The notes below the pieces were generated by a model. That model was given only the letters and a program-made list of their open reading frames with translations, searched no databases and was not told where the DNA came from. From positions 131,251 through 195,250 of the forward strand of contig JAUVZX010000001.1 in assembly GCA_030602345.1 (NCBI GenBank): a stretch of DNA of 64,000 nucleotides. Reading direction: 5' to 3'. Source of the stretch: Bacilli bacterium (lineage in GTDB: Bacteria; Bacillota_I; Bacilli_A; RF39; UBA660). Position numbers and translations under genes: made by a program. Shown in pieces: positions 1,430 to 64,000 of this stretch (its first letter is position 1; every line of letters starts with the position of its first letter).

Positions 1430-1580
1430 TCTCTCACCTCTCTAGCCGTATAAAAAAACCTGCACGTAGCAGGCGAAAAAACTTAGTTATAACTTAAGTT
1501 CCTCGGCAGGAAATATTAAGCTTTCGCTCCTGCTGTCTACGGTCTTTTTTAATTTTTAACAAATTTATTATATCAAATCA
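1430..1580 (-). promoter_or_regulatory. Putative L10(L12) leader / rplJ 5' UTR regulatory structure
   Basis: A structured, GC-enriched 150 nt intergenic region upstream of rplJ (gcctgcacgtagcaggc hairpin etc.). This is the expected position of the Firmicute L10 leader autoregulatory element. Confidence 0.4.
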
Positions 1581-17641: not shown

Positions 17642-18562
17642 TTAAAATGTTTTCCATCCTCCTGCGGTAAAGTAATTTGGTATACCTAAATTATTTATCC
17701 ACACTCTGTCTAATTGCCCTTCACTAGGATTGATCCACCCCTCTAAAATGATTACATTTGCTAACATATTACCCTGAACCGAAATGTTTGTTTGCAACCA
17801 TATACTACCTAAAGAATCCGAAGGTAATGGATTTTGAGCTACCGCTTGTGCATAATATAGTCCTGTTGCCCCCGTATTTATTGTAACTTGAGGTATTAAT
17901 AAATCAAACCTAGAATCAGTTCTTAATATCGCCGGCATATTAAAATTGTTTTCTAGAATATCTAAAATAACTGTGTACTCCCCTCCTGCAATTGGTCTCC
18001 ACTGAAATCTATTTAATATCCTATCCCAAACTCCACCATTAAAGCGAATGTTTTCACCAACTTTTGAAGAATTAGAAAAAACCATTGTACTATGATTATA
18101 TAAATTATTAAAAGGTGCACTTACTTGTGAATAGTATATATTACTTATACATTCACTATCACTCATCTTACTTAGTATTATATCTTCACTACTTCTATTT
18201 TTAACTGAACAATATACTCCATCATATAATGCCAACTTTATACTTCCATCTTCAAATATGTGGATTCCTCCTGATTTGGGATTACTTCCACTAAATATGA
18301 TATCTCTATCATTTGGATATACTGTTTTTTCTCCTTCATTAAATAATACAAATACTGGTACGTTTCCATTTCCTGTCTTATCTAATACATATAAGTTTTC
18401 ACTAGCTTTAATCAATCCCTTTGTTGATGATCTAAAACTTCTTTCTTGAGCTGTTTCTATCATATTAAGTGCATTGGGCACTGTGATTAATGCTATTATT
18501 GCTAGTACTACCATTACTACTAATAACTCTATTAATGTAAATCCTTTTTTCTTCTTTTTCAT
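17642..18562 (-). CDS. Pilin-like surface protein, variable paralog B
   Basis: Same N-terminus as paralog A, nearly identical at the nucleotide level, with the conserved C-terminal …RVWINNLGIPNYFTAGGWKTF. Confidence 0.65.
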   Translation of the reverse strand: MKKKKKGFTLIELLVVMVVLAIIALITVPNALNMIETAQERSFRSSTKGLIKASENLYVLDKTGNGNVPVFVLFNEGEKTVYPNDRDIIFSGSNPKSGGIHIFEDGSIKLALYDGVYCSVKNRSSEDIILSKMSDSECISNIYYSQVSAPFNNLYNHSTMVFSNSSKVGENIRFNGGVWDRILNRFQWRPIAGGEYTVILDILENNFNMPAILRTDSRFDLLIPQVTINTGATGLYYAQAVAQNPLPSDSLGSIWLQTNISVQGNMLANVIILEGWINPSEGQLDRVWINNLGIPNYFTAGGWKTF

Positions 18563-18613: not shown

Positions 18614-19594
18614 TTAGAATGTTTTCCAACCTCCTGCAGTAAAGTAATGTACTACTCCAGAACCATTGATCCATACTCTATTTATGATTTCATCCATCTC
18701 TTCTTTTGTTGGTTCATTACCTGCTCCATATAAAGATGTTAAATCAAGCGTTATAGCTTTTTTTATTTCCATTATTTTCCCGTTCGCTTCAGATGCACTT
18801 GAATAAGATTGAACAATTATATTATAAGATGATACAGTTGCAGTCGCCGTTCTATTGGTAGAAAATACATACCATTTGCCAATTATAGAATTATATACGT
18901 TTACATCACTATTTGTAACATTAAATGATCTTTGTCTTAAAAAATCCGGGTTTCCATTAATTATTCTTGCTTCCCAATTATAATAATATACATTATTTAA
19001 TACGATATTTATAGATCTTCCAACGTATGATTGATTCCCAACTCCATTACCAGTAAGTCTTAAGACTCTCCCAACTACTTCTTGAGTAGAGTTACTTGCA
19101 ATCCACCCAGATGTTCCATTACTAAAGTCTCCATTGGTTATCAAATTATTAAATGGTGCACTTGTTTGTTCATAATATATATTTGATAAACAAATATTCT
19201 CACTTATCTTACTTATTGTTATTTCTTCGCTTGTTCTATTCTTTATTGAACAATATGTTCCATCATATAAAGCTAGTTTTATACTTCCGTCTTCAAATAT
19301 ATGGATTCCTCCTGATTCAGGATTACTTCCATTAAACATGATGTCTTTAGTATTTGGATATACTGTTTTTATTCCATTTTCAAACAAGATAAAGACTGGT
19401 ACATTTCCATTTCCTGTCTTATCTAATACATATAGGTTTTCACTAGCCTTAATTAATCCTTGTGTTGATGATCTAAAACTTCTTTCTTGAGCTGTTTCTA
19501 TCATATTAAGTGCATTTGGCACTGTAATTAATGCTATTATCGCTAGCACTACCATTACTACTAATAACTCTATTAATGTAAATCCCTTTTTCAT
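18614..19594 (-). CDS. Pilin-like surface protein, variable paralog C
   Basis: Same N-terminal 150 aa block and C-terminal …RVWINGSGVVHYFTAGGWKTF, with a divergent centre. Confidence 0.65.
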   Translation of the reverse strand: MKKGFTLIELLVVMVVLAIIALITVPNALNMIETAQERSFRSSTQGLIKASENLYVLDKTGNGNVPVFILFENGIKTVYPNTKDIMFNGSNPESGGIHIFEDGSIKLALYDGTYCSIKNRTSEEITISKISENICLSNIYYEQTSAPFNNLITNGDFSNGTSGWIASNSTQEVVGRVLRLTGNGVGNQSYVGRSINIVLNNVYYYNWEARIINGNPDFLRQRSFNVTNSDVNVYNSIIGKWYVFSTNRTATATVSSYNIIVQSYSSASEANGKIMEIKKAITLDLTSLYGAGNEPTKEEMDEIINRVWINGSGVVHYFTAGGWKTF

Positions 19595-26779: not shown

Positions 26780-27088
26780 CTATCTATTGATGGTTGAAGC
26801 TACACATGTATCAGTATCAAAAACTACTGAAACAAAAGAATAATTTCCTTTGTAATCTAAATCTGCAGCAACTACTGGACTAGTAACTGTTGCGCCTGGA
26901 CTTAAAGTTTTTTGTTCTAAACAATAAACTTCTGCAGCTCTTCTAATTCCATCTTCTGATCTAGCATCTGCTCTTTCTTGTGCAGTTGTAATCATCGCAA
27001 GTGCATTTGGTACTGTAATTAACGCAATGATTGCTAATATAACGATAACTACTAATAATTCTATTAGTGTAAATCCTTTTTTATTCAT
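26780..27088 (-). CDS. Type IV major pilin-like protein (ComGC-sized), paralog 1
   Basis: MNKKGFTLIELLVVIVILAIIALITVPNALAMI is a class III signal. 102 aa. Confidence 0.75.
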   Translation of the reverse strand: MNKKGFTLIELLVVIVILAIIALITVPNALAMITTAQERADARSEDGIRRAAEVYCLEQKTLSPGATVTSPVVAADLDYKGNYSFVSVVFDTDTCVASTINR

Positions 27089-27117: not shown

Positions 27118-27459
27118 TTATGGCATTGTTGTTAATGCTGTCGCTGTACATGAAGCATTAAACGAAAAACCAACTACAGGAAAACCATCAGCAGTTTTCA
27201 ATGTTGTACCGGTTTTAATTAGAGTCCCTAATCCTGCAACAGTAACTGGCCCTGGAGTAGCGAAGGTTGCTGATCCTGTTTTTTCTCTCATACAATAAAC
27301 TTCTGCAGCTCTTAATGCACCTTCTAATGATCTAGCATCTGCTCTTTCTTGAGAAGTTGCAATCATTGCTAATGCATTAGGCACTGTGATTAATGCGATG
27401 ATTGCTAAAATAACGATAACAACCAATAATTCGATTAATGTGAAACCTTTTTTGTTCAT
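27118..27459 (-). CDS. Type IV major pilin-like protein, paralog 2
   Basis: Same conserved N-terminal ~55 aa and a divergent C-terminal half. 113 aa. Confidence 0.75.
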   Translation of the reverse strand: MNKKGFTLIELLVVIVILAIIALITVPNALAMIATSQERADARSLEGALRAAEVYCMREKTGSATFATPGPVTVAGLGTLIKTGTTLKTADGFPVVGFSFNASCTATALTTMP

Positions 27460-27595: not shown

Positions 27596-27922
27596 TTATT
27601 CTGGTATTACGAAATTAGGTGCACATGTATCTTGATTGAATTCTATATGGTCTTGTCCATCAAGATGATCTGGTACTGCTTTTATAAAATTAGGAACTAA
27701 ATTGTTCATGCTTACTGCGATAATCGGTGCGGTACCTTTTAGTTTTTCAGTCATGCAATATAATTCCGCGGCTCTTAAGATTCCGTCTTCAGATCTTGCA
27801 TTTGCTCTTTCTTGAGCTGTTGCAATCATTGCTAATGCATTTGGTACTGTGATAAGAGCTATGATTGCCAATATAACGATAACTACTAGTAATTCTATTA
27901 GCGTAAATCCTTTGTTTTTCAT
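27596..27922 (-). CDS. Type IV major pilin-like protein, paralog 3
   Basis: MKNKGFTLIELLVVIVILAIIALITVPNALAMIATAQER. 108 aa with a divergent C-terminus. Confidence 0.75.
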   Translation of the reverse strand: MKNKGFTLIELLVVIVILAIIALITVPNALAMIATAQERANARSEDGILRAAELYCMTEKLKGTAPIIAVSMNNLVPNFIKAVPDHLDGQDHIEFNQDTCAPNFVIPE

Positions 27923-43601: not shown

Positions 43602-43942
43602 GGGGATGTCACGGTTTCGACGAATCTCTCGAATATTAGATGGCAAGTCGTGAGGATTGCGTTAAGTCCAAAATAAAATTAAGTGGAAACACATATAATT
43701 TAGCATTCGCTTAAAAAAATAACGATGCTGCTTTCCTCTTTCCATCCTACGGGAAAGAAAGAAGGCTCGAATTAGTAGGATATACTTATATAGGTGCTTA
43801 ACTATATAAAAGAACAAATAAAGCTCACTAATTGTTAGATTTTCAATTATCTTTAGATTAGGACATTAATTAATTGAATAAGCTTGTAGATATCTAAGGT
43901 TTGAATTTTCGGACAGGAGTTCAATTCTCCTCATCTCCACCA
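43602..43942 (+). ncRNA. ssrA: tmRNA (SsrA)
   Basis: The 5' end GGGGATGTCACGGTTTCGACG pairs with the 3' end …GGACAGGAGTTCAATTCTCCTCATCTCCACCA (tRNA-Ala-like acceptor/T-arm with CCA). The internal tag reading frame ends …GNTYNLAFA followed by TAA. Confidence 0.9.
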
Positions 43943-51754: not shown

Positions 51755-51779
51755 AACAAAAAGAAAAGAAGCAAAGCTT
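51755..51779 (-). terminator. Intrinsic terminator after the T4CP gene / right edge of conjugation module
   Basis: agaagc-ttt-gcttct hairpin followed by a T-rich run on the minus strand. Confidence 0.45.
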
Positions 51780-53975
51780 CTATTCTTCATCATCACTAAA
51801 GAAATCATCAAAGAATTGATCATCCGTTATTTTGAATGGCTTTTTCTCTGGTATAACTTTATCTTCTACCTTAATCGGTGTTTCTATTTTTGGTTCTACT
51901 CTAATATCTCTAGCTAAATCAACCATTTTTGTTTCCTTCAACGGTGTTCCTGATACCTCAAACTCATTTGGAACAATAAATTTAGGTTTAACTTCTTCCA
52001 CAACTGTTTTTTCTTCTATCATTGGCTCTGGAGCAACAAATTTTCTTTCTTCCATTATTGGTCTATCCTCAATGATTGATTGAGTGATAGTTTCAGGTTG
52101 TTGGAAAACAGTTCCACCATTTTCTTCCTCAGCCTCTTCGGCTGCTGCTATTCTAGCATCAATTCTTTTCATAATTGCATCTATATCAATTCCTGAGTCA
52201 AATGATGACATTGAATCAGCCTGACTATCAAAGAAGTTAGGAGCACCAAATGGTTTTTCCTTAGGTTTAGATTGATTTCTATTATCGACAAATTCTTTCA
52301 AATTAAATAATTTAAGAGGTCTAATTTCCCTTGGAGTAAACTCTGCTTTAGGGTATTTTTTACCCCAATTCATTTTATAATTAAATTCTAATTTAGTTTT
52401 AAATGGAGCTTTTCTAGTTCTTAAGATAACTGCCTCTCCCATTTTTAATTGTTGTAAATCACTTACAGTAATTAAAGGCGTTGAAGCTGTTTTATCTTTT
52501 TCTTTAGATTTCTTTTCTCCAGCCATTTTACTTATTTCTTCTAAAGCTGAAAGTTCACTACTAATTAAGTAAACTATGTTACCACAGTTACCCTTAATAG
52601 TTTCTCCATTTTCTTTACCATAAACTTGATAAAGCTGTGAATAGTTTTGAATAATAAATGTCATTCTAATCAATCTAGAACGAGCTGCTGTAACCATTGT
52701 AGTAACATCCTTTAAAGGAGGCATATTTGCAAACTCATCTAAAATGAAGTTAGTACGATATTTTAATTTACCATCTGGATTTTCTTGAGCAACATCGATT
52801 AACGATTCATAACATTGTTTAATAAATGTTGTAACTAAAGGATGGAGTGTTTTCTTCTCATCTTGCACAATCAAGAAAACTGCTGTTTTTTGTCTTCCAA
52901 TTCCCTTCATATTAATGTCATTATATGCTAACATTTCTGAAATATTTTCTCTTGCTGCAAATAATTTGATCTTTTGATAGAAAACAGCAAATATACTATT
53001 TTTAGTTTCCGCTGCTGCAACCAAAACACTCGCTAAGTTAACATAAGCGGGACTAGATGGATCTTTAGTTGAAAAATACTCTTTCAAGTAAGTTCCACTT
53101 CTAAATCTTTCTTCTCCTAAAGCACTCATTAAATTAATACTATTAATATTTATTTGTTCTTCAGTAGCATCTTCGAATAACGCTAATGCTAATCCAACAA
53201 AGTAATTAGCTGCTGTTTTTTCCCAGAAATCATCTGCTTTATTTTTTTCATCATATAAGATATTAATGGCTAAATCATCTAAAAGTTCAATTGCTTTGTC
53301 CTTATCACCACTTTTATATAATTCATAAGGAAGAATCAATGGATTCCATGCGGAACCTTTTTGTGGCTCACGAAAGTTTAGAACAATAACATTATATCCT
53401 CTTTTTCTAAGTTCAACAGCATTATCGCGGTAAATTTCACCTTTAGGATCGGTGATAATCATTGATTCCCCTTTCTTAGCTAAAAGCTTAACTAAAGGCA
53501 AAACGACTAATTGAGTTTTACCACTACCAGTAGAACCGATGACTAAGTTATGATATTCACCATTGTCTACCCATAACTCTTTACCATCATTAATAAGAGG
53601 AATTCCCGCTGCAGTTGTAACTTCTTCAGAGGGCAAAACTCTTGATAATTCTTTCTTCATATCTTTGTTTTTAGAAAAAGTGTTATATCCACCTTTATCT
53701 TTTTTACCAAAAGTGAATCCAAATCCTTCTTCCATTTCGAAAAACATAGACGATCCTTGAGTAAGAATCAATCCTAAAGAAAGTAAATAAAGAGATATAG
53801 TTGGCCATATAAATTCATCTGTAAAAACTTTTAATGGATTAAATCCATGAAGCGTTGTATCGCTAGCAAATTGAAATAAATTCAACACAACTAACGACAC
53901 TAAATAAAACATTACAATCAATAGAATTATAAATGCCCATAAATGTTTAGCCTCTGCCTTAATTCTTAATTTCAT
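51780..53975 (-). CDS. Type IV secretion coupling protein (VirD4/TraG/TraD family T4CP)
   Basis: Two N-terminal TM helices, Walker A VIGSTGSGKTQ and TraG-family blocks (…ITDPKGE…, …FILDEFAN…). Extended acidic C-terminal tail. Confidence 0.85.
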   Translation of the reverse strand: MKLRIKAEAKHLWAFIILLIVMFYLVSLVVLNLFQFASDTTLHGFNPLKVFTDEFIWPTISLYLLSLGLILTQGSSMFFEMEEGFGFTFGKKDKGGYNTFSKNKDMKKELSRVLPSEEVTTAAGIPLINDGKELWVDNGEYHNLVIGSTGSGKTQLVVLPLVKLLAKKGESMIITDPKGEIYRDNAVELRKRGYNVIVLNFREPQKGSAWNPLILPYELYKSGDKDKAIELLDDLAINILYDEKNKADDFWEKTAANYFVGLALALFEDATEEQININSINLMSALGEERFRSGTYLKEYFSTKDPSSPAYVNLASVLVAAAETKNSIFAVFYQKIKLFAARENISEMLAYNDINMKGIGRQKTAVFLIVQDEKKTLHPLVTTFIKQCYESLIDVAQENPDGKLKYRTNFILDEFANMPPLKDVTTMVTAARSRLIRMTFIIQNYSQLYQVYGKENGETIKGNCGNIVYLISSELSALEEISKMAGEKKSKEKDKTASTPLITVSDLQQLKMGEAVILRTRKAPFKTKLEFNYKMNWGKKYPKAEFTPREIRPLKLFNLKEFVDNRNQSKPKEKPFGAPNFFDSQADSMSSFDSGIDIDAIMKRIDARIAAAEEAEEENGGTVFQQPETITQSIIEDRPIMEERKFVAPEPMIEEKTVVEEVKPKFIVPNEFEVSGTPLKETKMVDLARDIRVEPKIETPIKVEDKVIPEKKPFKITDDQFFDDFFSDDEE

Positions 53976-53983
53976 ATGACCTC

Positions 53984-54634
53984 CTATATAAATTTTTTAT
54001 TCTTTTGTTTTATTGTTAAATATATACCAACAATCAATAACATTATTGGTCCGAAAACTAATGCTAATACAACCATAAAGTTATCAAAAATTGAAGTACT
54101 TGCACTAGCACTAGTTAAATCAAGTTCAAAACTAATTGGTTTATTATTACTTAATTTCAATTCCCATATATGAACATTATTATCACTTTTATCAGCATTA
54201 CTATTTTCTATTTCAAATGGTGACTTAATAATTAGTTTTAAATTATCTACTTCACCAAAACACTCGAAGTTACCATTAGTGTTGAATATTACCTTATCAT
54301 CTTTCTTTTCAATAGTTGTTTTACTATAACAACTAGTAACAAATGGAGTCCAAGCTAAATATTCATCATAACTAGATTTATTATTAAATTTTAATCCTGA
54401 TAAAGTATCACCTATAACTTTTTCTTTAGAATATACATACATCGGATTAGTTATCTCATCATTCATCCAAATTATAAATTGGAGTTCTGATTCTAAATCT
54501 TCGCCGATTAATTCATTTTCCTCTAAAACAGTTATATTTTCATCGATAAAATTACCATCAATAGTTACTTCATAAGTAACGCTACATCCAGTCAAAAGAA
54601 ACATAAACATTAAAATTAGTAGTTTCTTTACCAT
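53984..54634 (-). CDS. Conjugation-associated lipoprotein, hypothetical
   Basis: Lipobox LLTGC (MVKKLLILMFMFLLTGCSV) and a C-terminal TM helix, translationally coupled between the hydrolase and the T4CP. Confidence 0.5.
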   Translation of the reverse strand: MVKKLLILMFMFLLTGCSVTYEVTIDGNFIDENITVLEENELIGEDLESELQFIIWMNDEITNPMYVYSKEKVIGDTLSGLKFNNKSSYDEYLAWTPFVTSCYSKTTIEKKDDKVIFNTNGNFECFGEVDNLKLIIKSPFEIENSNADKSDNNVHIWELKLSNNKPISFELDLTSASASTSIFDNFMVVLALVFGPIMLLIVGIYLTIKQKNKKFI

Positions 54635-56202
54635 CTTCCACCACTACACACATTTCTTGCTTGTATACATACATTGGCATCTTCTCTATAAGGAGTGCAA
54701 CCCTTAGCATATAAAAACTCTTCAGGATTATATGTTTGTTTTTTACCACTTAATAATTCAAAATGTAAGTGGGTCGCTGATGAGCAACCAGTATCTCCCA
54801 TGACACCAATAAACTCGCCTGATGCTACTGTAGAACCAATCATTAAATTAGGCGCCACTGAATCTAAATGGACATATTTAGAATAAAATTTTTCTACTTT
54901 TCCATCTATCATAATTTCATGTTCTAATGTTACTATTCCTGCAGGACATTGAGAATAAAAACATATTGGTTTTCTAGTCCATACTGGTCTACAATTAATT
55001 CCACTGCGGTTAATTGCAACTACTTTTCCTGGAGCAACCGCATAAAGAAGAGGCTTACCACCATTGTTTCCTATATCAACACCAGCATGCGAATTACAAT
55101 TATTTGGTCCATAAAAACCAAAACATCCCGTCTGCCTACAAGGTTGAGTCCCTAAAGGACTAACTAATATATCTAACATTTCTTGAGGTATTGCTCCTGC
55201 TTTACCTGAACCAGAAATTGTTTCACCCTGTAAATAAGTTATATCTTGAACAGCAAAAGCATTTCTAATTGAATAAACCTCTTCAATAACACTATCAAAG
55301 AAAGCTCCTTGCCCTTCGTTAGGAATGGCAACATCTATGCTCCTTAATTTATCTTCAATATAATTTTCTTTTATCCATTTATCATATTCAGCCTTTGTTT
55401 TCAACATGTAAACATCTTCTTCTGATACGGTAAAACTCATTGTTTTAGTTAATAAACATCCCTTGTCATCTTTTGCACATACTGTCTTATCTTCAAAAGA
55501 CTGTGGCTTATCTATTTTAAAACAAACATTGTTACATGTAGAATCACTTCCACAAACTTTAGAATCGTTTTCTTTAGTTGTCGTTGTTGAATCACAATCA
55601 CCAAATCCTTGAACTATAACTTGCCCGCTAGGTAATGTTTCAGTAATTAATTGACATTGATTTTTACGTATAACTGTTGTTTCAGTACAAGTATAAATCA
55701 TATTTTTATAAATCATATTATCGATTAATTCTACAGCTTCTTTTTCTAACGCCTTATAATTTAATTTTTTTTCTTCAAAACAATCTTCTAACTCTTCCTG
55801 AGTACATTCAATATTGGCAGCATCAGGATCACCATAGTATATGAATGCTAATACTAGGTTCATGTCTACCGCTACTCCACGGTCTTCCCAATATTCTTTT
55901 CTTTCTTCTAAAACATCAACAAAAGCTTGCAATTCAGGACTTCTGATTTCTTTACCACTTTCGTCTAATCTAGAGTTATTACCTCCAAAGAAAGACATAA
56001 ACGGTGCTAAAACAACTGCTAAAATTATAATTACTGCAAATAAAGGAATTAATATAGGGATTGCTGAAACAAAAGCAGTTGCTAACCACATTTTAAATTT
56101 CGATTTTATTGCACCACCAAGAAAACTGGTGACACCACCAGCTTGATCGACTTGATTCAAAGTATTTTTAAAGTTTTTGAGCCCGTTTAAAAAGTTTTTC
56201 AA
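54628..56202 (-). CDS. Membrane-anchored M23 peptidase (T4SS cell-wall hydrolase, CwlT/TcpG analog)
   Basis: N-terminal TM helix, a Cys-rich middle region and a C-terminal M23 domain with HxxxD (HAGVDIG) and HxH (THLHFE) motifs. Confidence 0.75.
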   Translation of the reverse strand: MKNFLNGLKNFKNTLNQVDQAGGVTSFLGGAIKSKFKMWLATAFVSAIPILIPLFAVIIILAVVLAPFMSFFGGNNSRLDESGKEIRSPELQAFVDVLEERKEYWEDRGVAVDMNLVLAFIYYGDPDAANIECTQEELEDCFEEKKLNYKALEKEAVELIDNMIYKNMIYTCTETTVIRKNQCQLITETLPSGQVIVQGFGDCDSTTTTKENDSKVCGSDSTCNNVCFKIDKPQSFEDKTVCAKDDKGCLLTKTMSFTVSEEDVYMLKTKAEYDKWIKENYIEDKLRSIDVAIPNEGQGAFFDSVIEEVYSIRNAFAVQDITYLQGETISGSGKAGAIPQEMLDILVSPLGTQPCRQTGCFGFYGPNNCNSHAGVDIGNNGGKPLLYAVAPGKVVAINRSGINCRPVWTRKPICFYSQCPAGIVTLEHEIMIDGKVEKFYSKYVHLDSVAPNLMIGSTVASGEFIGVMGDTGCSSATHLHFELLSGKKQTYNPEEFLYAKGCTPYREDANVCIQARNVCSGGRW

Positions 56203-56223
56203 AAAATCACGTCCTTATTTCTT

Positions 56224-58014
56224 TTATAAGCCCCCACCAGAACCGAATGATTCTAGCTCTTTTTCAGTTACGATAATGCGCATTTGCATTCTTCTACTAC
56301 CACATACAAATAATGCATCTCCCTGTTGATAGCGCTTAATACTATCTTTTTCATTTTCATTTAAATCAATTAATTTAGATAAATCATCAACAGCTTGTTT
56401 TTTAAGACCCATAACTAAGTAGTATGAGGCATTATCAAATATAGCTTTACCTTGTGTGATTACTTTAGGATCGCTAAAGTCACTTGGTTGTTGAGTAACA
56501 ATTATTGTTCCCGTGTTATATTTACGAGATCTTCTTTGTACTTGTGCTAAGAACTCAGCTCCTAAAGTGTTATTCCCACTTAATAATACGTGAGCCTCTT
56601 CAACAATTAATGCTGTATTAACTGTTCTATCTAAAGTTAATCCCCATGCATATTTCAATATATTGAAAAATAATGCATTTCTGATATTAATATCAGCATT
56701 CATAATTTCACGGATATTAAATACAATAAAATTACTATCCGGCTTAATCGTTGTATGACCATCAAAATAATACTTTAATTCTTTTGTGATAGGTCTAATT
56801 TTTAATTCTAATCTTTCCATTATGCTCTTCTCGTGAGATGCATCTGGCATAGACATTAATCTTCCTTTTATAGTTGAATATACATCTGAGAAGGTTGGAT
56901 AATCAGCTGATGTATAATTTGAAAAATCTGTATCAAAATCGATACCAAAACGTTTATAAGTATCCATAACTGTTTCACTAAATAAAGTTAAAACATCATC
57001 TTCAATATCGGGTGAATAATACTTAATAAAAGCCTTTAGCGTCTGTAAAGTTCTCGTTAAGACAGCATGTCCTAACCCTTCTTTCATTTCTTCTTCATCA
57101 AAATCTAAAATTACTTCTAAAGGATTGATCATACCGTGAGTTCCACCTAAACCTAAATTGATAAAGTCTCCATCATAAAGTTTAGTCATATCCTCAAGTT
57201 CACCTTCTGGATCAATTGCAACTATTTGGTAATTATTTCTAATATGACTTCTCAAAATCAATTTAGCAGCAGTAGATTTACCACTACCAGAAGTTCCTAA
57301 AACAATCATATTAGCGTTGTTTCTATTATGTTCTTTCTTAATTTGATATAAGAATTGGTTAAATAAAATAACCCCTCCAGAGAAGTCTACTCCTAATAAA
57401 GTAGCCAATCCTTGGTCTTTAATGCTATCAAAGATAAATGGATACATTGCTGCCATCGTTGGCGAAGGCATAGGTGTCCCAATTCTATTTTCAACATCTT
57501 GATTTGGAAAAATAGGAACAATTGACTTAAGAACTTTCTCTTGTTCGAAAAGTAAAGTTACTCCTCTCATCTCCATAGCTTCAATATAATTTTTTACTTG
57601 TAAATATTGGTTTTCTAATTCCTCTTGTGAATTAGCAGTAATCATAATATGCATCTGAAAATCATATATCTTTTGATTAGTTGACGCCATATTAACAATA
57701 AACTCTTCTAAAGATTGATAATCTTGACGAATTCTTTCTTGAATAGTTTTATCATTTTCTTCTTGATATCTTTGTTTTAATTCAGCAATTTCTTTATTTA
57801 ACATCTTTCTAACAGATGAAAAAGGAAGAGGAATATGCTTAATAACAACTTTAATTCCTGTCATACTAGTTAAAGTAGATAAATATCCGGTTGAAATATA
57901 TCTTGGATATGAAATGATTGTTAAAATTCTTGCATACTTATCACTGATAAGAAAATCCTTAGTTCTAAATTGTACACCCTTAGGTGCTATTTGACTTCTA
58001 ATATCCATTTGCAA
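56224..58014 (-). CDS. VirB4/TraE/ConE-family conjugation ATPase (C-terminal 596 aa part)
   Basis: Walker A LGTSGSGKST and Walker B ALIVEEAHVLL with VirB4-like flanks. It starts at a TTG directly after an in-frame TGA. Confidence 0.85.
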   Translation of the reverse strand: MQMDIRSQIAPKGVQFRTKDFLISDKYARILTIISYPRYISTGYLSTLTSMTGIKVVIKHIPLPFSSVRKMLNKEIAELKQRYQEENDKTIQERIRQDYQSLEEFIVNMASTNQKIYDFQMHIMITANSQEELENQYLQVKNYIEAMEMRGVTLLFEQEKVLKSIVPIFPNQDVENRIGTPMPSPTMAAMYPFIFDSIKDQGLATLLGVDFSGGVILFNQFLYQIKKEHNRNNANMIVLGTSGSGKSTAAKLILRSHIRNNYQIVAIDPEGELEDMTKLYDGDFINLGLGGTHGMINPLEVILDFDEEEMKEGLGHAVLTRTLQTLKAFIKYYSPDIEDDVLTLFSETVMDTYKRFGIDFDTDFSNYTSADYPTFSDVYSTIKGRLMSMPDASHEKSIMERLELKIRPITKELKYYFDGHTTIKPDSNFIVFNIREIMNADINIRNALFFNILKYAWGLTLDRTVNTALIVEEAHVLLSGNNTLGAEFLAQVQRRSRKYNTGTIIVTQQPSDFSDPKVITQGKAIFDNASYYLVMGLKKQAVDDLSKLIDLNENEKDSIKRYQQGDALFVCGSRRMQMRIIVTEKELESFGSGGGL

Positions 58015-58543
58015 TCACCGTCCCAAATCTAGTTTCCATTCCTCCATTTAAGAAGTTTTCCAAGACGATTCTCATATCTTCATTAGTTGTTTGATATGCT
58101 GTCATATTAGCCCCAGCAAACGCCCCAATTAAGTCACGAATCTTTTTCTTAGCCTTTTCAGGATCTTTTTCTTTAAATAATAAATAGTATTCGGTATCAA
58201 CTACATTATTATTTGTAAATTGATTAGCTTTTTCAATATCTTGAACAATTAGTTTTCTCCTTGATAATGAACCAGCATTGTTATATAAGGCTTGTAATTC
58301 AGATAAATATACGTTTATATCAACAGGTCTATCTGCTACTACTAACCAAAATTCATAATCAATTTGATTATAAACATTCTTTAGATTATTAATCATCATT
58401 TGTTCTGTAGAAGAATCTAAGATAAAAATGTTTTTAGGCATAATTTTTATACCTGCAACTTTATAATTATTATCTAAAATAATCATTCCCTCTCTAATAT
58501 CTTTAACCGGAACAAACATACTTGTATTATTCTTCGAAGCCAT
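57998..58543 (-). CDS. VirB4-family N-terminal domain encoded as a separate 181 aa ORF (split gene or frameshift)
   Basis: …FVPVKDIREGMIILDNNYKVAGIKIMPKNIFILDSSTEQ… matches the N-terminal domain of Gram-positive VirB4-like proteins (Orf16/PrgJ/TcpF type). It overlaps the 596 aa ORF by 17 nt in another frame. 181+596 aa approximates a full-length VirB4. Confidence 0.55.
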   Translation of the reverse strand: MASKNNTSMFVPVKDIREGMIILDNNYKVAGIKIMPKNIFILDSSTEQMMINNLKNVYNQIDYEFWLVVADRPVDINVYLSELQALYNNAGSLSRRKLIVQDIEKANQFTNNNVVDTEYYLLFKEKDPEKAKKKIRDLIGAFAGANMTAYQTTNEDMRIVLENFLNGGMETRFGTVIANGY

Positions 58544-58844
58544 CTTTATAATCCCAACCTTTCCAATAATAATTTTGATTATCTATAAAGTAAAACTTAA
58601 ATATTGTTTTAATTATATGAAGCACATTATGATAATTAGGAATAGGCATAACTAATAGTCCTGTGATTGCTCCAGGTGCTAATGCTATTACTGTAAACAG
58701 TAGTTTCTCCATCGGAAGAGCTAAAACTCCAACGAATGAAAAGAAAACTCCTACTCCAAATATTATCAAATCTATTTCTCTAAATGCTCCAAAAATCAAT
58801 AATGATCTTTTTGAGTTGGCCGGTATTAAAAATTGTCTATCCAT
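58527..58844 (-). CDS. Small two-TM membrane protein (VirB3/ConD-like position)
   Basis: 105 aa with two hydrophobic helices. It lies immediately upstream of, and overlaps, the VirB4 N-terminal ORF, the typical position of VirB3. Confidence 0.35.
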   Translation of the reverse strand: MDRQFLIPANSKRSLLIFGAFREIDLIIFGVGVFFSFVGVLALPMEKLLFTVIALAPGAITGLLVMPIPNYHNVLHIIKTIFKFYFIDNQNYYWKGWDYKDGFEE

Positions 58845-58875
58845 TTTTTTACCACCTTTTATTCTTTCTTTTTAG

Positions 58876-61101
58876 TTAATCGATGATATCTATATCATCT
58901 TTTTTAGGCATATCGAATCTATCCGCAATATCATACCTAGACATATCTGGTTTTTCAAAATTATTTTCAATGTAAGCTTTATTAGCGGCAATTTCTTTTT
59001 CTGCCTTCTCATCTAAATATGTCTGATTTTCCTTTTTACCAAAAACTGATTCAGATTTTGGTTGTTGTTTAGAACCACCTTCAGATGATGAAGACTCTGT
59101 TATATTAACTTTAACTGGTTCAGATTTTTTAGAGCTTTTATTCATTGCATCAAATAACTTAGCATCCGCTTTTGCTCCTTCGTAAGCTTTCATATCTGAT
59201 GCCACTGAAGGATTGTAATTAAGTTCTATTTCATAATTAGATTTAGCTCTTTCCAAATTAACACTAGCTGATGTCAAGGCTTTTCTAGCTTCCTCTGCTT
59301 CACTAATTAATGTTGATTTATACTCTTGATTTTGTTTAACAGTGGCATCGTAATTCGATTTTGCTGCTTTAACTTGTTCAATTAATTCAGGTGAGCTTTC
59401 ACCACTCTGAATTCTTTTATTAAGCGTTTCATATTTAGTCCTTGCTTCCTCTTGTTTTCCGAGCATTTCAGAAGGTATGGCACCACTTTGAATTCTCTTA
59501 ACAAGAGTTTCATAATTAGATTCTGCACCTCTTTTGATTGTTTTCATAGTTTCTACTTCATCATAAGCTTTCGACAAAGTTTCGTCTCCTTTAAATATAA
59601 CATCTTTAATAAACGCTCTTTCTTGTTCTAGATTAGCTTGAGCTTGAGCTTTAGTTTTGATATTTGCAAGAGTTTTAGCATCTAAAGGTGCATTAGTTTC
59701 TTTCATCATATCTTTTATCATTTGAGTTTCTATTTCACTAGCGCGCCCTTCATTTCCTAAACTTCTTTTATCTCTTTCTCTAACGAATTCTGCACCACGT
59801 TTTCTATCATAATCTAAATCTTTCTTCTTATCTCTAGATTCTAATGCTTTCGTTCTTTCAGTTCTCAATGATTTAAGTGTATTAGTTCCTCCCATTGCAG
59901 GAACAGCATCCCATCCTTTTTTAAATCCAGAATTAAATCTCTTACCGTGCATTTTAGCATCTATACCAGACGTTGTTGCACCTGCAAGTTTTCCTGCAAG
60001 AGGAATTCCCATAAGCTTTTTCCATGGACTAAGCCCTAATCCACCAGAAGGTTCTTTCATACCAACCATAGAATATATTAATTTAGGAGCTATCTTAACA
60101 AACATTAAGATACCAAAGATAATGAAAATTGCTCCTAAAGGAGAAACTGGCCCAGATTCTGCGATCCCTAATTCGTTATAACGATATACAGTAGGAATTA
60201 TTCCTCCACCAAATATTTCGGCAATCAAGAAGACTGCAAAATATATTAAGGATAGTCGCATAAATAAGTCAACAAATGTTGTTGTAACTTCTGAAATCCA
60301 CGCTTTTAAAGCATCACCTTTTTTTGGATCAATCGATAAAATAATAGGTACCGGAGCAATCAATTGTAAGAATGCAAGTTTTACAGATCTTAATGCTATT
60401 TCAAAAGCAAAAGATATCATTAGAAATGCTGCAAATGCTCCCGCAATAGAAGATACTATCGTTGAATATCTAAATACATATTGATTTCCTGAAGTTAAAT
60501 TTATCAATGGGTGAAATTCAAAAATAGATGAATTAGGATTTGTATATGTTCTTTCAGCATTAGGATTTCCATAATTTATGCTTCCATCATTGTTTTTTGG
60601 TAAATTTGGAGTAAAGAAAGCCCTAAAAGTAATGCCCGCTATTACATTACCTGCAGACTCTCCCGTATCCACTATCGCATTTGCATTGTCAGAAGAACCT
60701 AATATTAATGATGGTAATATTCCCTCATTAAGAATTAAATATTGGAATCTAAATAAATTAGAAAATATTGTTGGAATTAATATAAGCAAAGTTAAAGCAA
60801 TAAGTATTTTTTTAACTAATTGCTTACCACCAGCTTTAGAATCATAAAAGTTGTCTGGGTTAAGTAACATATTTAATAGAGCTAATCCCGTTTTAAACAA
60901 AATAAATAAACCAATAATTATATATATTCTTTGAGTAAAGTTGACAAAAACTCTATCTGATAAAACAGCTATCCCGGCTAACTCATTAATCAATCCATAG
61001 GCTCCAGAGATTAATAAATAAATTCCTAAATCTATGAAAAACATAATTGAACGCCAAGCATTTTGAACCCAATCGGCATTAAGAATTAGAAACATATTCA
61101 T
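58876..61101 (-). CDS. VirB6/TrbL/ConG-like polytopic T4SS channel protein with coiled C-terminal extension
   Basis: ~8 TM helices in the first 420 aa. The C-terminal 300 aa are hydrophilic with internal repeats (YETLVKRIQSGAIPSEMLGK / YETLNKRIQSGESSPELIEQ). The start was moved to MNMFLIL to avoid overlap. Confidence 0.5.
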   Translation of the reverse strand: MNMFLILNADWVQNAWRSIMFFIDLGIYLLISGAYGLINELAGIAVLSDRVFVNFTQRIYIIIGLFILFKTGLALLNMLLNPDNFYDSKAGGKQLVKKILIALTLLILIPTIFSNLFRFQYLILNEGILPSLILGSSDNANAIVDTGESAGNVIAGITFRAFFTPNLPKNNDGSINYGNPNAERTYTNPNSSIFEFHPLINLTSGNQYVFRYSTIVSSIAGAFAAFLMISFAFEIALRSVKLAFLQLIAPVPIILSIDPKKGDALKAWISEVTTTFVDLFMRLSLIYFAVFLIAEIFGGGIIPTVYRYNELGIAESGPVSPLGAIFIIFGILMFVKIAPKLIYSMVGMKEPSGGLGLSPWKKLMGIPLAGKLAGATTSGIDAKMHGKRFNSGFKKGWDAVPAMGGTNTLKSLRTERTKALESRDKKKDLDYDRKRGAEFVRERDKRSLGNEGRASEIETQMIKDMMKETNAPLDAKTLANIKTKAQAQANLEQERAFIKDVIFKGDETLSKAYDEVETMKTIKRGAESNYETLVKRIQSGAIPSEMLGKQEEARTKYETLNKRIQSGESSPELIEQVKAAKSNYDATVKQNQEYKSTLISEAEEARKALTSASVNLERAKSNYEIELNYNPSVASDMKAYEGAKADAKLFDAMNKSSKKSEPVKVNITESSSSEGGSKQQPKSESVFGKKENQTYLDEKAEKEIAANKAYIENNFEKPDMSRYDIADRFDMPKKDDIDIID

Positions 61102-62449
61102 AACCTCCCATACTTGGAACACAAGTATTAATTTTAAATATTGAGAAAGTCATATTTAATAGAGATGGCAAAAGAGCAAGTAAGAACATTACTATAATTC
61201 TTGTTGTAAAATTCTTCCAAGCTTTTTTCATAGCCTCTGGTTTTTCTGAAGTGACCGCTCCAAAGAAGTCGAGCATTCCTAATATAATTAATGAAATACC
61301 TGCAAATATTAATATCAAATTATACATATCTTTCAAAAAATTAAATAATCTTCCAAAAGATGAACATGTTAGTGGACCAGGATTATATATTAATTTCAAA
61401 CCGCTAGATAGCTCAAATGATAAATCACCACGACTCACTGAATACAAATCCGCATTAACATCATGCACACTTTCAGTCATAAGGAAACATTTGGCATTTA
61501 GAGATGTTTTAGATAATTTAGCTCCATCGCCATTTTCATTAGGACAGAAGTAAATATTTGGATTTAAATATTGATCTTCTTTATCAAAAAAATCGGAAGC
61601 CTTTAATGAACTAACATCTAAAAGTGAATTTGATAATACTTTTGTGGTTGATTCAACAACTTGTCTAGCACCACCTGTAATCTTTTGCTCTACTTTAGAA
61701 TAATAAGTAACCGCTAAAGTGTTATTTTGCATTCTTAACCCAACGGTCCCATTAAGATCTCTTAAAGTTTTTCCGCTTGAATAGTCCAGTCTTACAGAAT
61801 TATTTTTTATTGTTGGTTGAACAACTCCAGATTTAGAAGTATTTAAAGTTATTCTTCCTGTTCCTATAACTGATTGATTAGCAAAATCAGAATGATTAGA
61901 TTTATAATCATTGTAAAAAGGTTTAACGTCATAATAGATTCTAATCATATCCTGGCTACTATTTTTTTTTATAAAAGCTGCATGATTTATAGCAGGACAA
62001 ACAATAGATTTATCGTTTTTCATAAACGATATATCATTTATGAATGAAGTCTCATTTATATTATCTAATTTAAATACTGCACTAAGCAAATGTGATTGAG
62101 CTTTTTTGATTTTAAGATCACCAATTTTTGCAGTAGAAGGAGGCCACTCGTTTTTAGTAAGAATTTCATAATTACCATAACCACCTGTTGCACCAGTAAA
62201 TTTATGCGATTGTGATTTTAAGCTTCCGTTTTCCATAATAAAAGTTGCTTCTACAAATAAAACTAGTTTATCAGCATCTGATGGAATAATTTCCAAATTA
62301 TATACACAAGTTGCTTGTCCAAATTGAGGACTACCACCATCCCACTGCAATTCATTTATACTATTACCACTAACAAATCCAGGAATAAACAACATTCCTA
62401 GCATTATTAAAAAGAACGATATTTTTGTACTTTTTTTAACTTTTTCCAC
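61079..62449 (-). CDS. Secreted, C-terminally membrane-anchored T4SS-associated protein, hypothetical
   Basis: Signal peptide MEKVKKSTKISFFLIMLGMLFIPGFVSG, a ~380 aa extracellular domain and two C-terminal TM helices. Confidence 0.4.
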   Translation of the reverse strand: MEKVKKSTKISFFLIMLGMLFIPGFVSGNSINELQWDGGSPQFGQATCVYNLEIIPSDADKLVLFVEATFIMENGSLKSQSHKFTGATGGYGNYEILTKNEWPPSTAKIGDLKIKKAQSHLLSAVFKLDNINETSFINDISFMKNDKSIVCPAINHAAFIKKNSSQDMIRIYYDVKPFYNDYKSNHSDFANQSVIGTGRITLNTSKSGVVQPTIKNNSVRLDYSSGKTLRDLNGTVGLRMQNNTLAVTYYSKVEQKITGGARQVVESTTKVLSNSLLDVSSLKASDFFDKEDQYLNPNIYFCPNENGDGAKLSKTSLNAKCFLMTESVHDVNADLYSVSRGDLSFELSSGLKLIYNPGPLTCSSFGRLFNFLKDMYNLILIFAGISLIILGMLDFFGAVTSEKPEAMKKAWKNFTTRIIVMFLLALLPSLLNMTFSIFKINTCVPSMGGYEYVSNS

Positions 62450-62480
62450 TATAATTTCAACCTCTTATTTCTAAATACAA

Positions 62481-62495
62481 TATTAACAATATTAT
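62481..62495 (-). promoter_or_regulatory. Extended -10 promoter (TGTTATAAT) upstream of 456 aa gene
   Basis: Minus strand …ttttttttgTGtTATAATattg…. Confidence 0.3.
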
Positions 62496-62550
62496 AACAC
62501 AAAAAAAAGCGATAATAAACAAGTTTATATCACTTTAGCTTTTATTTATA

Positions 62551-62910
62551 CTACTTTTTATAGCAGCTTGATGAGTTTGTAATTAAACAGTTTGCACAAC
62601 CCATGATTCCTTTGTTAGAAGCATTAGCGTTACCAAGTAATGAGAACACAACTTGAACGATAGATACAACTAGGAATACAAGTATCGCTGCAATTAAACG
62701 TTTCATGAATATAGCTTGTCCTTTTTTAATGTCATCTTCTTTACCTTGAGTAATTGCTTTGAATAAATCCAAAGTACCCATAAAGATTAACACTACTGGA
62801 ACTGCTATTTGAATCAATCTAAATAGAGTTGATAATAGGAATGGAATTTCTCCTGGAATAGACATGTTAAGGAACCCTTCACATCCTACAAAAGTGTTTA
62901 ATAAATACAT
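62551..62910 (-). CDS. Small two-TM protein, possible VirB2/TrbC-like conjugative pilin
   Basis: 119 aa, strong RBS AGGAGGT. Two long hydrophobic helices separated by a short charged loop, and a Cys-containing C-terminus. The topology is typical of VirB2-class pilins. Confidence 0.3.
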   Translation of the reverse strand: MYLLNTFVGCEGFLNMSIPGEIPFLLSTLFRLIQIAVPVVLIFMGTLDLFKAITQGKEDDIKKGQAIFMKRLIAAILVFLVVSIVQVVFSLLGNANASNKGIMGCANCLITNSSSCYKK

Positions 62911-62965
62911 AAAATACCTCCTAACTAAGATTATATTATCTTATTTTTTATAAATTGTCAAATGC

Positions 62966-63967
62966 TTATAAGCCAAATAAACCAAGTAATTTATTCTTAG
63001 AATTAATTGAACCTTCAGCATCTACTTTAAATCCCATTTTTTTGATAAATGGTAATAAAGCAATTATATCTTTTTGTCTTTCATCTAGAGGTGGTAAGTT
63101 ATGAAAAACTTTCAACCCAGATTCATATTCAAAGTCTAAAACATCTTTATTATTCAATAGACTTTGGTTTAAAATTATTTTTTTATCCCTATATTCTTTT
63201 AAAACATTGGGATTTGAGCCAATAAATTTATTCAATTTAATCATTGATGGTTGGAGTAAATAATATACTTCGTGACATAAAGCTTCTGCTCCTGAACCAT
63301 GATTCAAATCAATAAATATGGCCATTTTATCTTGATTTTTTGCTATTTCTACTCCGATGTTATTTGAAGTAACACTTATTGCTTTTTTGTAATTAAAGTA
63401 TGAAAAATCTCTCTTATCTACTTCTAAAGCGATAACAGGAAAATATTTTTCACACTGCTTAGTAAGCATATATACTAAACTAGTTGAACCTGCTCCTGAA
63501 TTTAAATTTTTAAATCCAATTATTTTAGGACCAACAACATTAGTTGGTTTAGCTATATATTGTGTATCACCTGAAACTATTTCTAATTGTTGGATATGAG
63601 CTACATCAACATATGAATTAGGATTTGAAATTAAATAAGGAATGCCATTCAATTGGTCAGTAAAATTATAAAAATTAATTGATATTAATTTTGTTAAATA
63701 TTCTGCTGAACGACTATCTTTAAAGTTTGGATCCAGCAATAAAATAATTTTTTCTGCTGGTAAACTAATCGATAGTTTCTTCAAAGTATTAATATCTTTA
63801 TAATTTTTTATTGCAGTAACATCAATAATATATCTTGCTGCGAATAGATGTTTTAATTGTGAAACAATCTCTTCAGCTGTAAATTCGCCTTCGATTATTT
63901 TCATAATGTCATCTAAATTTAATGATTTAATTTGATCTAATTGGCGATTTGCCACGATTATATTCAT
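62966..63967 (-). CDS. CpaE/ParA-like P-loop ATPase with receiver-like N-terminal domain, hypothetical
   Basis: RBS AAGGTGA. Residues ~150-175 (KIIGFKNLNSGAGSTSLVYMLT) resemble a deviant Walker A of TadZ/CpaE/ParA-type ATPases. The N-terminal 120 aa has a CheY-like alternating pattern. Confidence 0.3.
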   Translation of the reverse strand: MNIIVANRQLDQIKSLNLDDIMKIIEGEFTAEEIVSQLKHLFAARYIIDVTAIKNYKDINTLKKLSISLPAEKIILLLDPNFKDSRSAEYLTKLISINFYNFTDQLNGIPYLISNPNSYVDVAHIQQLEIVSGDTQYIAKPTNVVGPKIIGFKNLNSGAGSTSLVYMLTKQCEKYFPVIALEVDKRDFSYFNYKKAISVTSNNIGVEIAKNQDKMAIFIDLNHGSGAEALCHEVYYLLQPSMIKLNKFIGSNPNVLKEYRDKKIILNQSLLNNKDVLDFEYESGLKVFHNLPPLDERQKDIIALLPFIKKMGFKVDAEGSINSKNKLLGLFGL

Positions 63968-64000
63968 TGTTTCACCTTCTTTTAATTAAAAATTACTTTT

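Follow-up and report, generated by a model that had tools for sequence, protein, structure and literature searches.

A chromosomally fixed gene cluster of the uncultured order RF39 that joins a type IV secretion system to a Tad-like pilus module, probably a domesticated conjugation apparatus of plasmid descent

The stretch of DNA analysed here (the window, 64,000 nt) comes from the chromosome of a Bacilli bacterium of the order RF39, and the subject of this report is the set of genes at positions 51780-64000 that encode a type IV secretion system (T4SS). They make up the distal part, 12.2 kb long, of a chromosomal cluster of 22.4 kb, whose other genes encode a Tad-like pilus module, a DUF5411 protein and large surface proteins. 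A first-pass annotation made from the letters alone had counted thirteen genes in this part of the window and had taken the T4SS module to end at the window edge; there are ten intact open reading frames (ORFs) of at least 100 amino acids (aa), all on the minus strand and tightly packed, and they continue beyond the edge into the Tad-like module. The overlaps between genes, reported at 4-17 nt, are real and measure 7-17 nt between neighbouring ORFs. Family scans bore out the row of co-oriented T4SS genes and the identities that had been named for them (Table 1), and the proposed boundary at low coordinates, a terminator followed by dedA, also held. The terminator-like hairpin itself spans 51781-51767, the T-run TTTCTTTTTG comes next, and dedA and then rmuC lie beyond it.

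The VirD4-type coupling protein (T4CP) reaches 299 bits against NF045973 (conju_CD1115), exceeding its cut-off of 250, and 175 bits against PF02534 (T4SS-DNA_transf). VirB4 is encoded in two parts. The ATPase part matches P-loop_TraG, NF045975 (347.8 bits, positions 295-893) and NF045971 (167 bits), and the best family for both parts is NF045975 (Mbov_0397), a model of the Mycoplasma integrative and conjugative element (ICE), although both stay below its 590-bit cut-off and are thus not members. The closeness to mollicute-type ICEs claimed in the first-pass annotation is therefore supported by VirB4 similarity (348 bits against this cut-off), but not as an argument from gene order. The M23 peptidoglycan hydrolase fills a VirB1-like role. 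The VirB6-like protein scores 33 bits against NF045848 MMCAP2_0566, under the cut-off of 90; its orthologue in another RF39 locus (L090) has a weak match to PF19597 TrbL_4, and the slots of its plasmid counterparts are annotated as TrbL family. The VirB3-like protein has no significant hidden Markov model match of its own; the corresponding slot of the Bacillus thuringiensis plasmid pBMB68 is annotated as PrgI family. Neither the lipoprotein nor the TadZ-like protein matched any family in the Pfam and NCBIfam scans. The latter carries a degenerate Walker A motif (NSGAGSTS) and agrees with TadZ/CpaE ParA-like proteins at the fold level; its gene closes the Tad-like module and lies directly against those of the T4SS. 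A monoderm conjugative T4SS is recognized by VirB4 together with a coupling protein of the VirD4 rather than the TcpA type, and both are present. Judged by sequence, the window genes encode what appears to be a monoderm conjugation-type (VirD4-type) T4SS whose proteins are related in sequence to those of mollicute ICEs.

A further 20.2 kb beyond the window were read from contig logan:SRR14872665_1315 (loci L001 and L004), which is identical to the window over the shared 11,035 nt (0 mismatches). The upstream part of the cluster runs, all co-oriented, in the order 537 aa-211 aa-905 aa-DUF5411-CpaB-CpaF-two polytopic proteins-61-aa pilin-151 aa-135 aa-TadZ-like, followed by the window genes. The CpaF-type ATPase scores highest against VirB11/TrbB models (TIGR02788 VirB11, 117 bits), with the VirB11, TrbB and TadA models all under cut-off. 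All three pilin-like proteins have an N-terminal motif in common, and the N-terminus of the major pilin is invariant across species, reading MKEAAGEAN(L/M)TV. The invariance extends over the N-terminal 25 residues, followed by a hypervariable, cysteine-rich C-terminal part (CC…C…C), and the total length varies from 54 to 88 aa between species. Tad-like is the right label for this module: the ATPase, CpaB and, at the fold level, TadZ are there, while the Flp motif and a prepilin peptidase are not. Outward of the cluster on this side follow five small membrane-anchored proteins, an EamA transporter, tRNA-Leu(CAA), a metallo-beta-lactamase-fold protein (lactamase_B), scpB, scpA, mraY, murF and gltX.

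Table 1. Features of the cluster, its flanks and the rest of the window. Plain coordinates are those of the window; coordinates preceded by an L number are those of that locus.
Feature	Coordinates	Strand	Length	Characteristics
Terminator-like hairpin	51757..51781	-		AGAAGCTTTGCTTCT + T-run; directly 3' of the T4CP stop codon; downstream end of the cluster
VirD4-type T4CP	51780..53975	-	731 aa	N-terminal transmembrane (TM) helices; Walker A GSTGSGKT; acidic low-complexity C-terminal tail
Lipoprotein	53984..54634	-	216 aa	Lipobox LLTGC and C-terminal TM anchor (sequence features)
Membrane-anchored M23 peptidoglycan hydrolase	54628..56202	-	524 aa	PF01551, 50 bits (cut-off 28.7)
VirB4, ATPase part	56224..58014	-	594 aa from called start ATG 58008	Walker A GTSGSGKST
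VirB4, N-terminal part, separate gene	57998..58543	-	181 aa	NF045975 positions 100-276, 56.5 bits; PF26593 TraC-like
VirB3/PrgI-like small membrane protein	58527..58844	-	105 aa	Assigned by position, size and hydrophobic hairpin
VirB6/TrbL-like polytopic membrane protein	58876..61095 (longest ORF to 61122)	-	739 aa	Long charged, coiled C-terminal tail
Secreted protein	61079..62449	-	456 aa	C-terminal two-helix membrane hairpin; weak PF18895, E 0.0095, residues 375-432
VirB2-like T4SS pilin	62551..62910	-	119 aa	Helix, charged loop, helix; PF18895 (T4SS_pilin) 23.1 bits, cut-off 26.6
TadZ/CpaE-like two-domain protein	62966..63967	-	333 aa	N-terminal alpha/beta domain + ParA/MinD-fold domain
Two minor pilin-like proteins			151 and 135 aa	Between 61-aa pilin and TadZ-like gene
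Short major pilin	L001 8902-9087		61 aa	
Two polytopic platform-like proteins			300 and 261 aa	TadB/TadC positions
CpaF/VirB11-family ATPase				PF00437 T2SSE, 97.5 bits (cut-off 24.9)
CpaB/RcpC protein				Upstream of CpaF; PF16976, 30.5 bits (cut-off 28.8); TIGR03177, 49.8 bits (below 71)
DUF5411 protein				Upstream of CpaB
Secreted protein			905 aa	Upstream of CpaB
Anchored protein			211 aa	Upstream of CpaB
Membrane protein			537 aa	Model (predicted local distance difference test, pLDDT, 84): 5-6 TM helices; two beta-sandwich domains of the DUF4352 type, extracellular
Variable slot, scpB to cluster	L004 6473-9923			Four paralogous N-terminally anchored proteins of ~220-260 aa and a 123-aa lipoprotein
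tRNA-Leu(CAA)	L004 5447-5532			
Hydrolase slot between VirB4 and T4CP	53984-56202			M23
Hydrolase slot, other species	L083 11806-16939			NlpC/P60-like
Hydrolase slot, other species	L066 11791-18164			GDSL/YkuD, CHAP, M23 + lysozyme
tmRNA	43602-43942	+		Rfam match
Ribosomal protein L10 leader	1444-1560	-		Rfam match
Nine genes with type IV prepilin N-terminus	7601-7960, 15018-16517, 16565-17590, 17642-18562, 18614-19594, 26780-27088, 27118-27459, 27596-27922, 30311-32560	-		KGFTLIELL…

A VirB4 profile was run over the GTDB species, each represented by one genome, and relatives turned up in at least 524 representatives; the best 80 of these loci, in which VirB4 is 71-78% identical, were examined over 10 kb on either side of VirB4 (21 kb). 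The representatives include 'Bacillales bacterium UBA660' and 'Acholeplasma sp. CAG:878', and since UBA660 belongs as a family to RF39, an order that is uncultured and has reduced genomes (PMC13155120), the titles point to RF39 as the VirB4-bearing lineage. Among the loci is one from a closed chromosome of 1.52 Mb (OZ007022.1). The best match to the window VirB4 among GTDB representatives is 78% identical and the species of the window itself is not among the matches listed, although an NCBI contig of 220,992 bp carries an identical VirB4; either its representative assembly lacks the locus or the species lies outside that release. Ten of the records (L005, L012, L021, L028, L029, L042, L043, L045, L049, L058) are titled 'uncultured Muribaculaceae bacterium' or 'Bacteroidaceae bacterium', and these titles are probably taxonomic mislabels, given a VirB4 identity of 74-78% and identical synteny. 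More than 7000 homologues of the VirB4 ATPase part were found in a metagenomic protein collection. The best 120 measure 593-595 aa; four of them are near-identical to it (97-100%), and the others, 76-82% identical, come from metagenome-assembled genomes labelled Bacilli, Mollicutes or Tenericutes. When a library is clustered at 50% identity, the whole family falls into a single cluster, with the next relatives at 40% and then at 34% or less.

Tblastn with cluster and flank proteins gave a single gene order in 80/80 loci, as far as each reaches, namely CpaB-CpaF-two polytopic proteins-pilin-two minor pilins-TadZ-VirB2-(variable secreted protein)-VirB6-VirB3-VirB4N-VirB4C-(hydrolase/lipoprotein zone)-T4CP. 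It is followed downstream by (dedA)-rmuC-rnr-smpB, with RmuC beyond T4CP in 47 loci and RNase R/SmpB wherever the locus reaches, and the same order was confirmed by Pfam-marked gene tables in a species at 78% VirB4 identity. On the upstream side, RNHCP-scpA-scpB, a few variable genes, the ~530-aa and ~215-aa proteins, DUF5411 and CpaB are kept in two further species, and the position between scpAB and dedA-rmuC is identical in every locus that reaches the flanks. Median identities to the window proteins are 75% for VirB4C, 68% for CpaF, 64% for the TadB-like protein, 62% for VirB4N and 57% for T4CP, as compared with 68% and 47% for the housekeeping proteins RmuC and RNase R. Pairwise distances of VirB4 and RmuC are correlated (Mantel r 0.73, reached in 0/2000 permutations), with a mean distance of 0.19 for VirB4 versus 0.27 for RmuC. 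VirB4N is kept as a separate ORF of 176-191 aa in 80 loci, a conservation which shows that the split of VirB4 is neither a frameshift nor a pseudogene; gene lengths are constant over the ~80 species, and the TadZ-like protein keeps its degenerate Walker A. The VirB3-like ORF (103-116 aa) is present in 79 loci. Among the VirB2-like orthologues, 5 of 12 match PF18895 with E of 0.01 or less, and their alignment shows a conserved TM segment, a KEDEIKKGQ loop and a second TM segment. Several exposed proteins of the cluster evolve fast: lipoprotein orthologues are 21-31% identical (37 loci), and the 456-aa secreted protein is highly variable between species and was detected patchily among orthologous loci. 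By these comparisons the cluster appears to be under purifying selection and vertically inherited at one chromosomal site across RF39. The slot between VirB4 and T4CP is a hot spot of domain turnover, where different species carry different hydrolases (Table 1), and this turnover suggests adaptation to differing target cell walls.

Mobility genes were sought on both sides of the cluster. No tyrosine, serine or DDE recombinase/integrase family occurs in the 20 kb upstream, in the cluster or in the 51 kb of the window inspected downstream, and none was found in the other RF39 loci inspected. Pfam and NCBIfam scans of the cluster genes gave no relaxase family, and no primase lies in the stretch beyond the window; when MobP3 was compared by tblastn with the window and with RF39 loci totalling 1.6 Mb, the best E was 0.76; and what other RF39 genomes encode between VirB4 and T4CP are hydrolases and membrane proteins only, with no relaxase. 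The longest repeat common to both flanks is 15 nt, within the range of 11-18 nt for shuffled sequences, and no att-like repeats were found. The GC content is 29.9% in the cluster as compared with 28.5% in the remaining window. Among the four features that identify an ICE, VirB4 with T4CP is present, and the other three (an integrase, a relaxase/oriT, and att repeats or a variable site) were not found at the locus. The cluster is not an ICE.

The closest mobile relatives of the cluster are found on plasmids of Bacillota. The best plasmid matches of VirB4, ~30% identical, are on Exiguobacterium acetylicum pEYLC1.2 (NZ_CP082335.1) and B. thuringiensis pBMB68 (NZ_CP010581.1), whose transfer regions have the same parts list as the RF39 cluster. 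They run from a CopG/small gene through a MobP3 relaxase, a CD1115-family VirD4, a small pilin, TrbL, PrgI and a ~200-aa protein to a DUF87 VirB4, a cell-wall hydrolase, several surface proteins, a large protein, DUF5411 and SAF/CpaB, and on to an 'AAA family ATPase', a T2SS/T4P/T4SS ATPase, two ~300-aa hypothetical proteins, a small protein and DUF4320. Seven RF39 proteins match their pBMB68 counterparts directly, with E from 6e-5 to 7e-86 (VirB4C, 7e-86; T4CP, 5e-66, 30% identical; CpaF, 8e-38; CpaB, 1e-25, 32% identical; VirB4N, 2e-14; TadC-like, 5e-6; TadB-like, 6e-5), so that the two polytopic proteins have homologues there as well. The plasmid 'AAA' proteins carry the same odd Walker A substitute, GAG(A/S)(S/T), as the TadZ-like protein, and VirB4 is split also in pBMB68 and pEYLC1.2. 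CpaF-type ATPases of this kind are common on plasmids of Bacillus, Listeria, Lactococcus and Paraclostridium, and a more distant VirB4 relative (34% identity; L087), likewise split, has surroundings like those of an ICE, where sortase, SSB, Toprim and a serine recombinase are encoded. The plasmids differ from the RF39 cluster in having the MobP3 relaxase directly upstream of T4CP, and replication and partition genes, all of which are missing from the cluster; in RF39 the order is rearranged, with the Tad module first and T4CP last, the TadZ-like protein has an extra N-terminal domain, and protein identities to the plasmids are 21-32%. From these similarities, the RF39 cluster probably descends from a Bacillota transfer region of the pBMB68/pEYLC1.2 type that was rearranged and chromosomally fixed and lost its relaxase at the locus.

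This plasmid class has received little description. In the literature pBMB68 is listed merely with a 'putative conjugative region' (PMC9673590), and pairs of a T4SS with a Tad-like module are unmentioned both in the CONJScan paper (PMC4027160) and in a 2025 nomenclature review (PMC12857230). In PLSDB, MOB-suite calls pEYLC1.2 'non-mobilizable' despite its MobP3, T4CP and VirB4, and the system of pBMB68 is typed MPF_T. The component families are known and the pairs are annotated on plasmids, yet they are rarely discussed, and the class is poorly handled by current typing schemes.

The explanation that we regard as probable is that the cluster is a conjugation apparatus, T4SS and Tad-like module together, which descends from Bacillota plasmids and has been domesticated, that is, fixed in the chromosome rather than carried by an integrative element. 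This cell-to-cell transfer machine looks domesticated because it occupies the same chromosomal spot in hundreds of species with neither a relaxase nor an integrase beside it. The first-pass annotation had instead proposed a probable ICE, with the integrase, relaxase and oriT outside the window. The components are indeed of conjugative type, with VirB4 present and T4CP passing the equivalog cut-off of CD1115, distant relatives reside on ICE-like elements and plasmids, and tRNA-Leu 4.5 kb upstream and the tmRNA gene 8 kb downstream are candidate integration sites, tRNA and tmRNA genes being classical integration targets. An intact ICE is nevertheless very improbable: the 20.2 kb beyond the window, to which its missing parts had been assigned, hold the Tad-like module, surface proteins and housekeeping genes, and no relaxase, integrase or direct repeats were found there; the flank repeat is within chance and the composition like that of the remaining window; and the same order and housekeeping flanks recur in 80 species genomes, with VirB4 co-diverging with rmuC. 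The same annotation named a decaying remnant as its fallback, an ancient ICE or integrated plasmid left stranded without function. The missing relaxase and integrase, the split VirB4 and a TadZ-like protein whose Walker A is degenerate might be read in that way, but since the split and the degenerate motif recur in the plasmid homologues, they are ancestral and not signs of decay. All the genes are intact with constant lengths in ~80 species, and in conservation the ATPases equal or exceed the housekeeping genes at the flanks, with VirB4 ahead of RmuC, which leaves the remnant hardly any credibility. Neither recent integration nor decay fits a cluster in which the split, the lengths, the Walker A substitute and the position are all conserved and VirB4 co-diverges with rmuC.

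It could also be that two independent systems stand side by side, a Tad-like pilus for adhesion, colonisation or DNA uptake and a separate T4SS. Tad pili work alone in many bacteria; the order of the modules, with Tad upstream of the T4SS in RF39 and downstream on the plasmids, shows them to be separable in evolution; and a promoter-like site and gaps of 55-100 nt surround the VirB2-like gene. However, all RF39 loci examined have the modules next to each other and in one orientation, and the two also adjoin on unrelated Bacillota plasmids, where DUF5411 and a large surface protein accompany them. That mobile elements have repeatedly inherited them together speaks for a joint role, as in the type IV pili of R64 and PAPI-1, and we hold the independence of the two systems to be unlikely. 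Within the domestication that we favour, the fixed cluster may still carry chromosomal DNA from one RF39 cell to another, with a relaxase or other nickase encoded elsewhere or by a relaxase-independent route as proposed for mycoplasmas, and so give a lineage of reduced genome a 'sex' system, which we consider possible but doubtful. The VirD4-type T4CP has been retained and conserved, the best match of VirB4 is a Mycoplasma ICE model, the plasmid ancestors are conjugative in type, and mycoplasma ICEs mediate chromosomal transfer (PMC12857230). Against it, no relaxase was found in the window and the RF39 loci searched, and the analogous T4SS of Patescibacteria, which has no relaxase, is believed to have been recruited to roles other than conjugation.

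Several points weigh against domestication of a joint T4SS and Tad-like apparatus. The VirB6-, VirB3- and VirB2-like assignments are weak and below curated cut-offs. The polytopic 'TadB/TadC' proteins match neither T2SSF nor any other profile from Pfam, NCBIfam or the PDB; the Flp motif G/XXXXEY is missing from the pilins, the 61-aa pilin having no EY and no match to the Flp family; and no gene for TadV or another prepilin peptidase lies within the cluster. RmuC is linked to the cluster, so that transfer of the whole region between relatives by homologous recombination is compatible with the co-divergence. The search for a relaxase spans the loci rather than whole RF39 genomes, in which a relaxase could be encoded elsewhere, and both universality within RF39 and absence outside it lie beyond the sample of 80 among at least 524 loci. 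The whole case is made from sequence.

As to its working, the cluster has a complete channel and energising set (VirB6-like, VirB3-like, VirB4 and VirD4, the ATPases with intact Walker motifs), at least one wall hydrolase and a VirB2-like pilin, and RF39 is walled, with murF, mraY and a penicillin-binding protein (PBP) nearby. The Tad-like pilus and the variable surface proteins would find, contact and hold a partner cell, and the hydrolases would open peptidoglycan. VirB6, VirB3 and VirB4 would build the membrane channel, to which the VirD4 coupling protein would hand a cytoplasmic substrate. Conserved adjacency, here and on the plasmids, suggests that the two modules are coupled, and the direction of transport is likewise presumed. 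The first-pass annotation asked whether the T4SS is purely conjugative, and the question was well aimed. DNA, with a relaxase in trans or by relaxase-independent chromosomal exchange as in mycoplasmas, has perhaps a little short of an even chance of being the substrate; it is plausible because the ancestry is conjugative, the coupling protein is retained and the mycoplasma ICE machinery moves chromosomal DNA. The machine might instead transport proteins or other cargo in support of a dependent life in contact with other cells, as in Saccharibacteria, a possibility to which we give roughly a third of our belief, and what remains goes to adhesion alone. By analogy with Patescibacteria, a non-conjugative role is equally defensible. 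RF39 has been reported to be unable to make nucleotides, and a parasitic or symbiotic habit has been speculated (PMC13155120). Given this inability, a role in contact-dependent acquisition is attractive, and we offer it as a proposal only. A bolder idea, which we think rather unlikely, is that RF39 depends on contact with bacterial partners or with each other and uses the conjugation machine and Tad-like pilus as a core organelle, in convergence with Saccharibacteria.

There are some known systems with which the cluster can be compared. Relaxase-less chromosomal T4SSs derived from MPF_FATA are widespread in Patescibacteria (Quinonero-Coronel et al. 2025, 10.1101/2025.01.22.634366), and the account of Wang et al. 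2023 as cited in PMC12857230 states that T4SS and type IV pili (T4P), but not comEC, are essential for the epibiotic growth of Saccharibacteria. Both these systems and, presumably, that of RF39 derive from monoderm machinery of the MPF_FATA type; all are chromosomal and usually relaxase-less, have a VirB2-like T4SS_pilin, are widespread in a genome-reduced, auxotrophic lineage and occur with type IV filament systems in the same genomes. RF39 differs in its Bacilli host, in the Tad-like module joined to the T4SS and in having VirD4 in all loci examined; the likeness is drawn from descriptions, not from sequence or a tree, and essentiality was shown for Saccharibacteria only. The mycoplasma ICE (MICE; CDS5 VirD4, CDS17 VirB4, CDS16 VirB6-like), whose VirB4/VirD4 machinery mediates the chromosomal transfer mentioned above, provides the best NCBIfam model for VirB4 and, in MMCAP2_0566, a weak one for the VirB6-like protein. 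MICE and the RF39 cluster both lack a recognised classical relaxase at the locus and reside in related hosts, reduced-genome Bacilli and Mollicutes. On the other hand, the RF39 scores are below the cut-offs (348 vs 590; 33 vs 90), there is no DDE transposase and no mobility, VirB4 is split where the NF045975 model is a single 894-position profile matched by both parts, and RF39 has the cell-wall hydrolases and the Tad-like module that MICE are without (PMC12857230).

In R64 (IncI thin pilus) and PAPI-1 of Pseudomonas aeruginosa, a type IV pilus encoded beside VirB4 and T4CP genes makes contact with the partner in transfer (PMC12857230). The juxtaposition of a type IV-filament machine with VirB4 and T4CP is the same as in RF39, but these elements are diderm, use type IVb pili and unrelated components, are mobile with relaxases, and have been demonstrated experimentally, whereas in RF39 the coupling is presumed from gene order. 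With Tad/Flp systems the RF39 module shares RcpC/CpaB, a T2SSE ATPase, a ParA-fold TadZ-like protein, two polytopic proteins in the TadB/TadC positions, and a short pilin with two minor pilin-like proteins; it differs by the missing Flp motif, T2SSF match and TadV in the cluster, and by an ATPase nearest to VirB11/TrbB. In the literature searched, no paper linking RF39 to a T4SS was found.

RF39 is an abundant, auxotrophic order, widespread in the human and animal gut, that has never been cultured and has a reduced genome. A machine of 22 kb takes up ~1.5% of a 1.5-Mb genome, yet hundreds of species have kept it whole at a single locus, and because so costly a cluster has been kept, it is a strong candidate for a central function such as cell-cell interaction, DNA exchange or resource acquisition. 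If the core-organelle idea were true, the cluster would be a lineage-defining trait that explains the resistance of RF39 to cultivation, and it would point to a need, a partner or an obligate DNA exchange of RF39. Domestication here would be the second independent case of a monoderm conjugation system taken over by a reduced-genome lineage, after Patescibacteria. It also draws attention to the under-described transfer regions of Gram-positive plasmids that pair a T4SS with a Tad-like pilus. Automated callers of ICEs and plasmids will mis-flag the locus as mobile in RF39 genomes.

The rest of the window is ordinary chromosome with ffh, ldh, PBP2, sodA, an AP endonuclease, yqeH, tmRNA, smpB, rnr and rmuC. 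The tmRNA, with the tag peptide GNTYNLAFA, and the L10 leader are the only two Rfam matches in the window. The five small proteins between scpB and the cluster lie in a species-variable slot; they are absent from the upstream arrangement of further species and are therefore placed outside the cluster proper. Two of the four paralogues among them end in …DFR(P/T)LEL(K/N)SEVDIITR, and none of the slot proteins has a Pfam or PADLOC match. In other species the same slot holds PFL with its activase and an antitoxin, or MarR with ABC exporters.

Nine genes with a classical type IV prepilin N-terminus are dispersed among the housekeeping genes of the window (ffh, ldh, PBP2, sodA, yqeH). No assembly ATPase, platform protein or peptidase is encoded by the ten neighbours scanned. 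Several of the nine proteins carry large C-terminal domains of 300-750 aa, and three of them are tandem paralogues at 16.5-19.6 kb. Near these genes lie those for a 316-aa protein with a laminin-G/ConA-like domain and a 444-aa protein with a glycine-rich domain.

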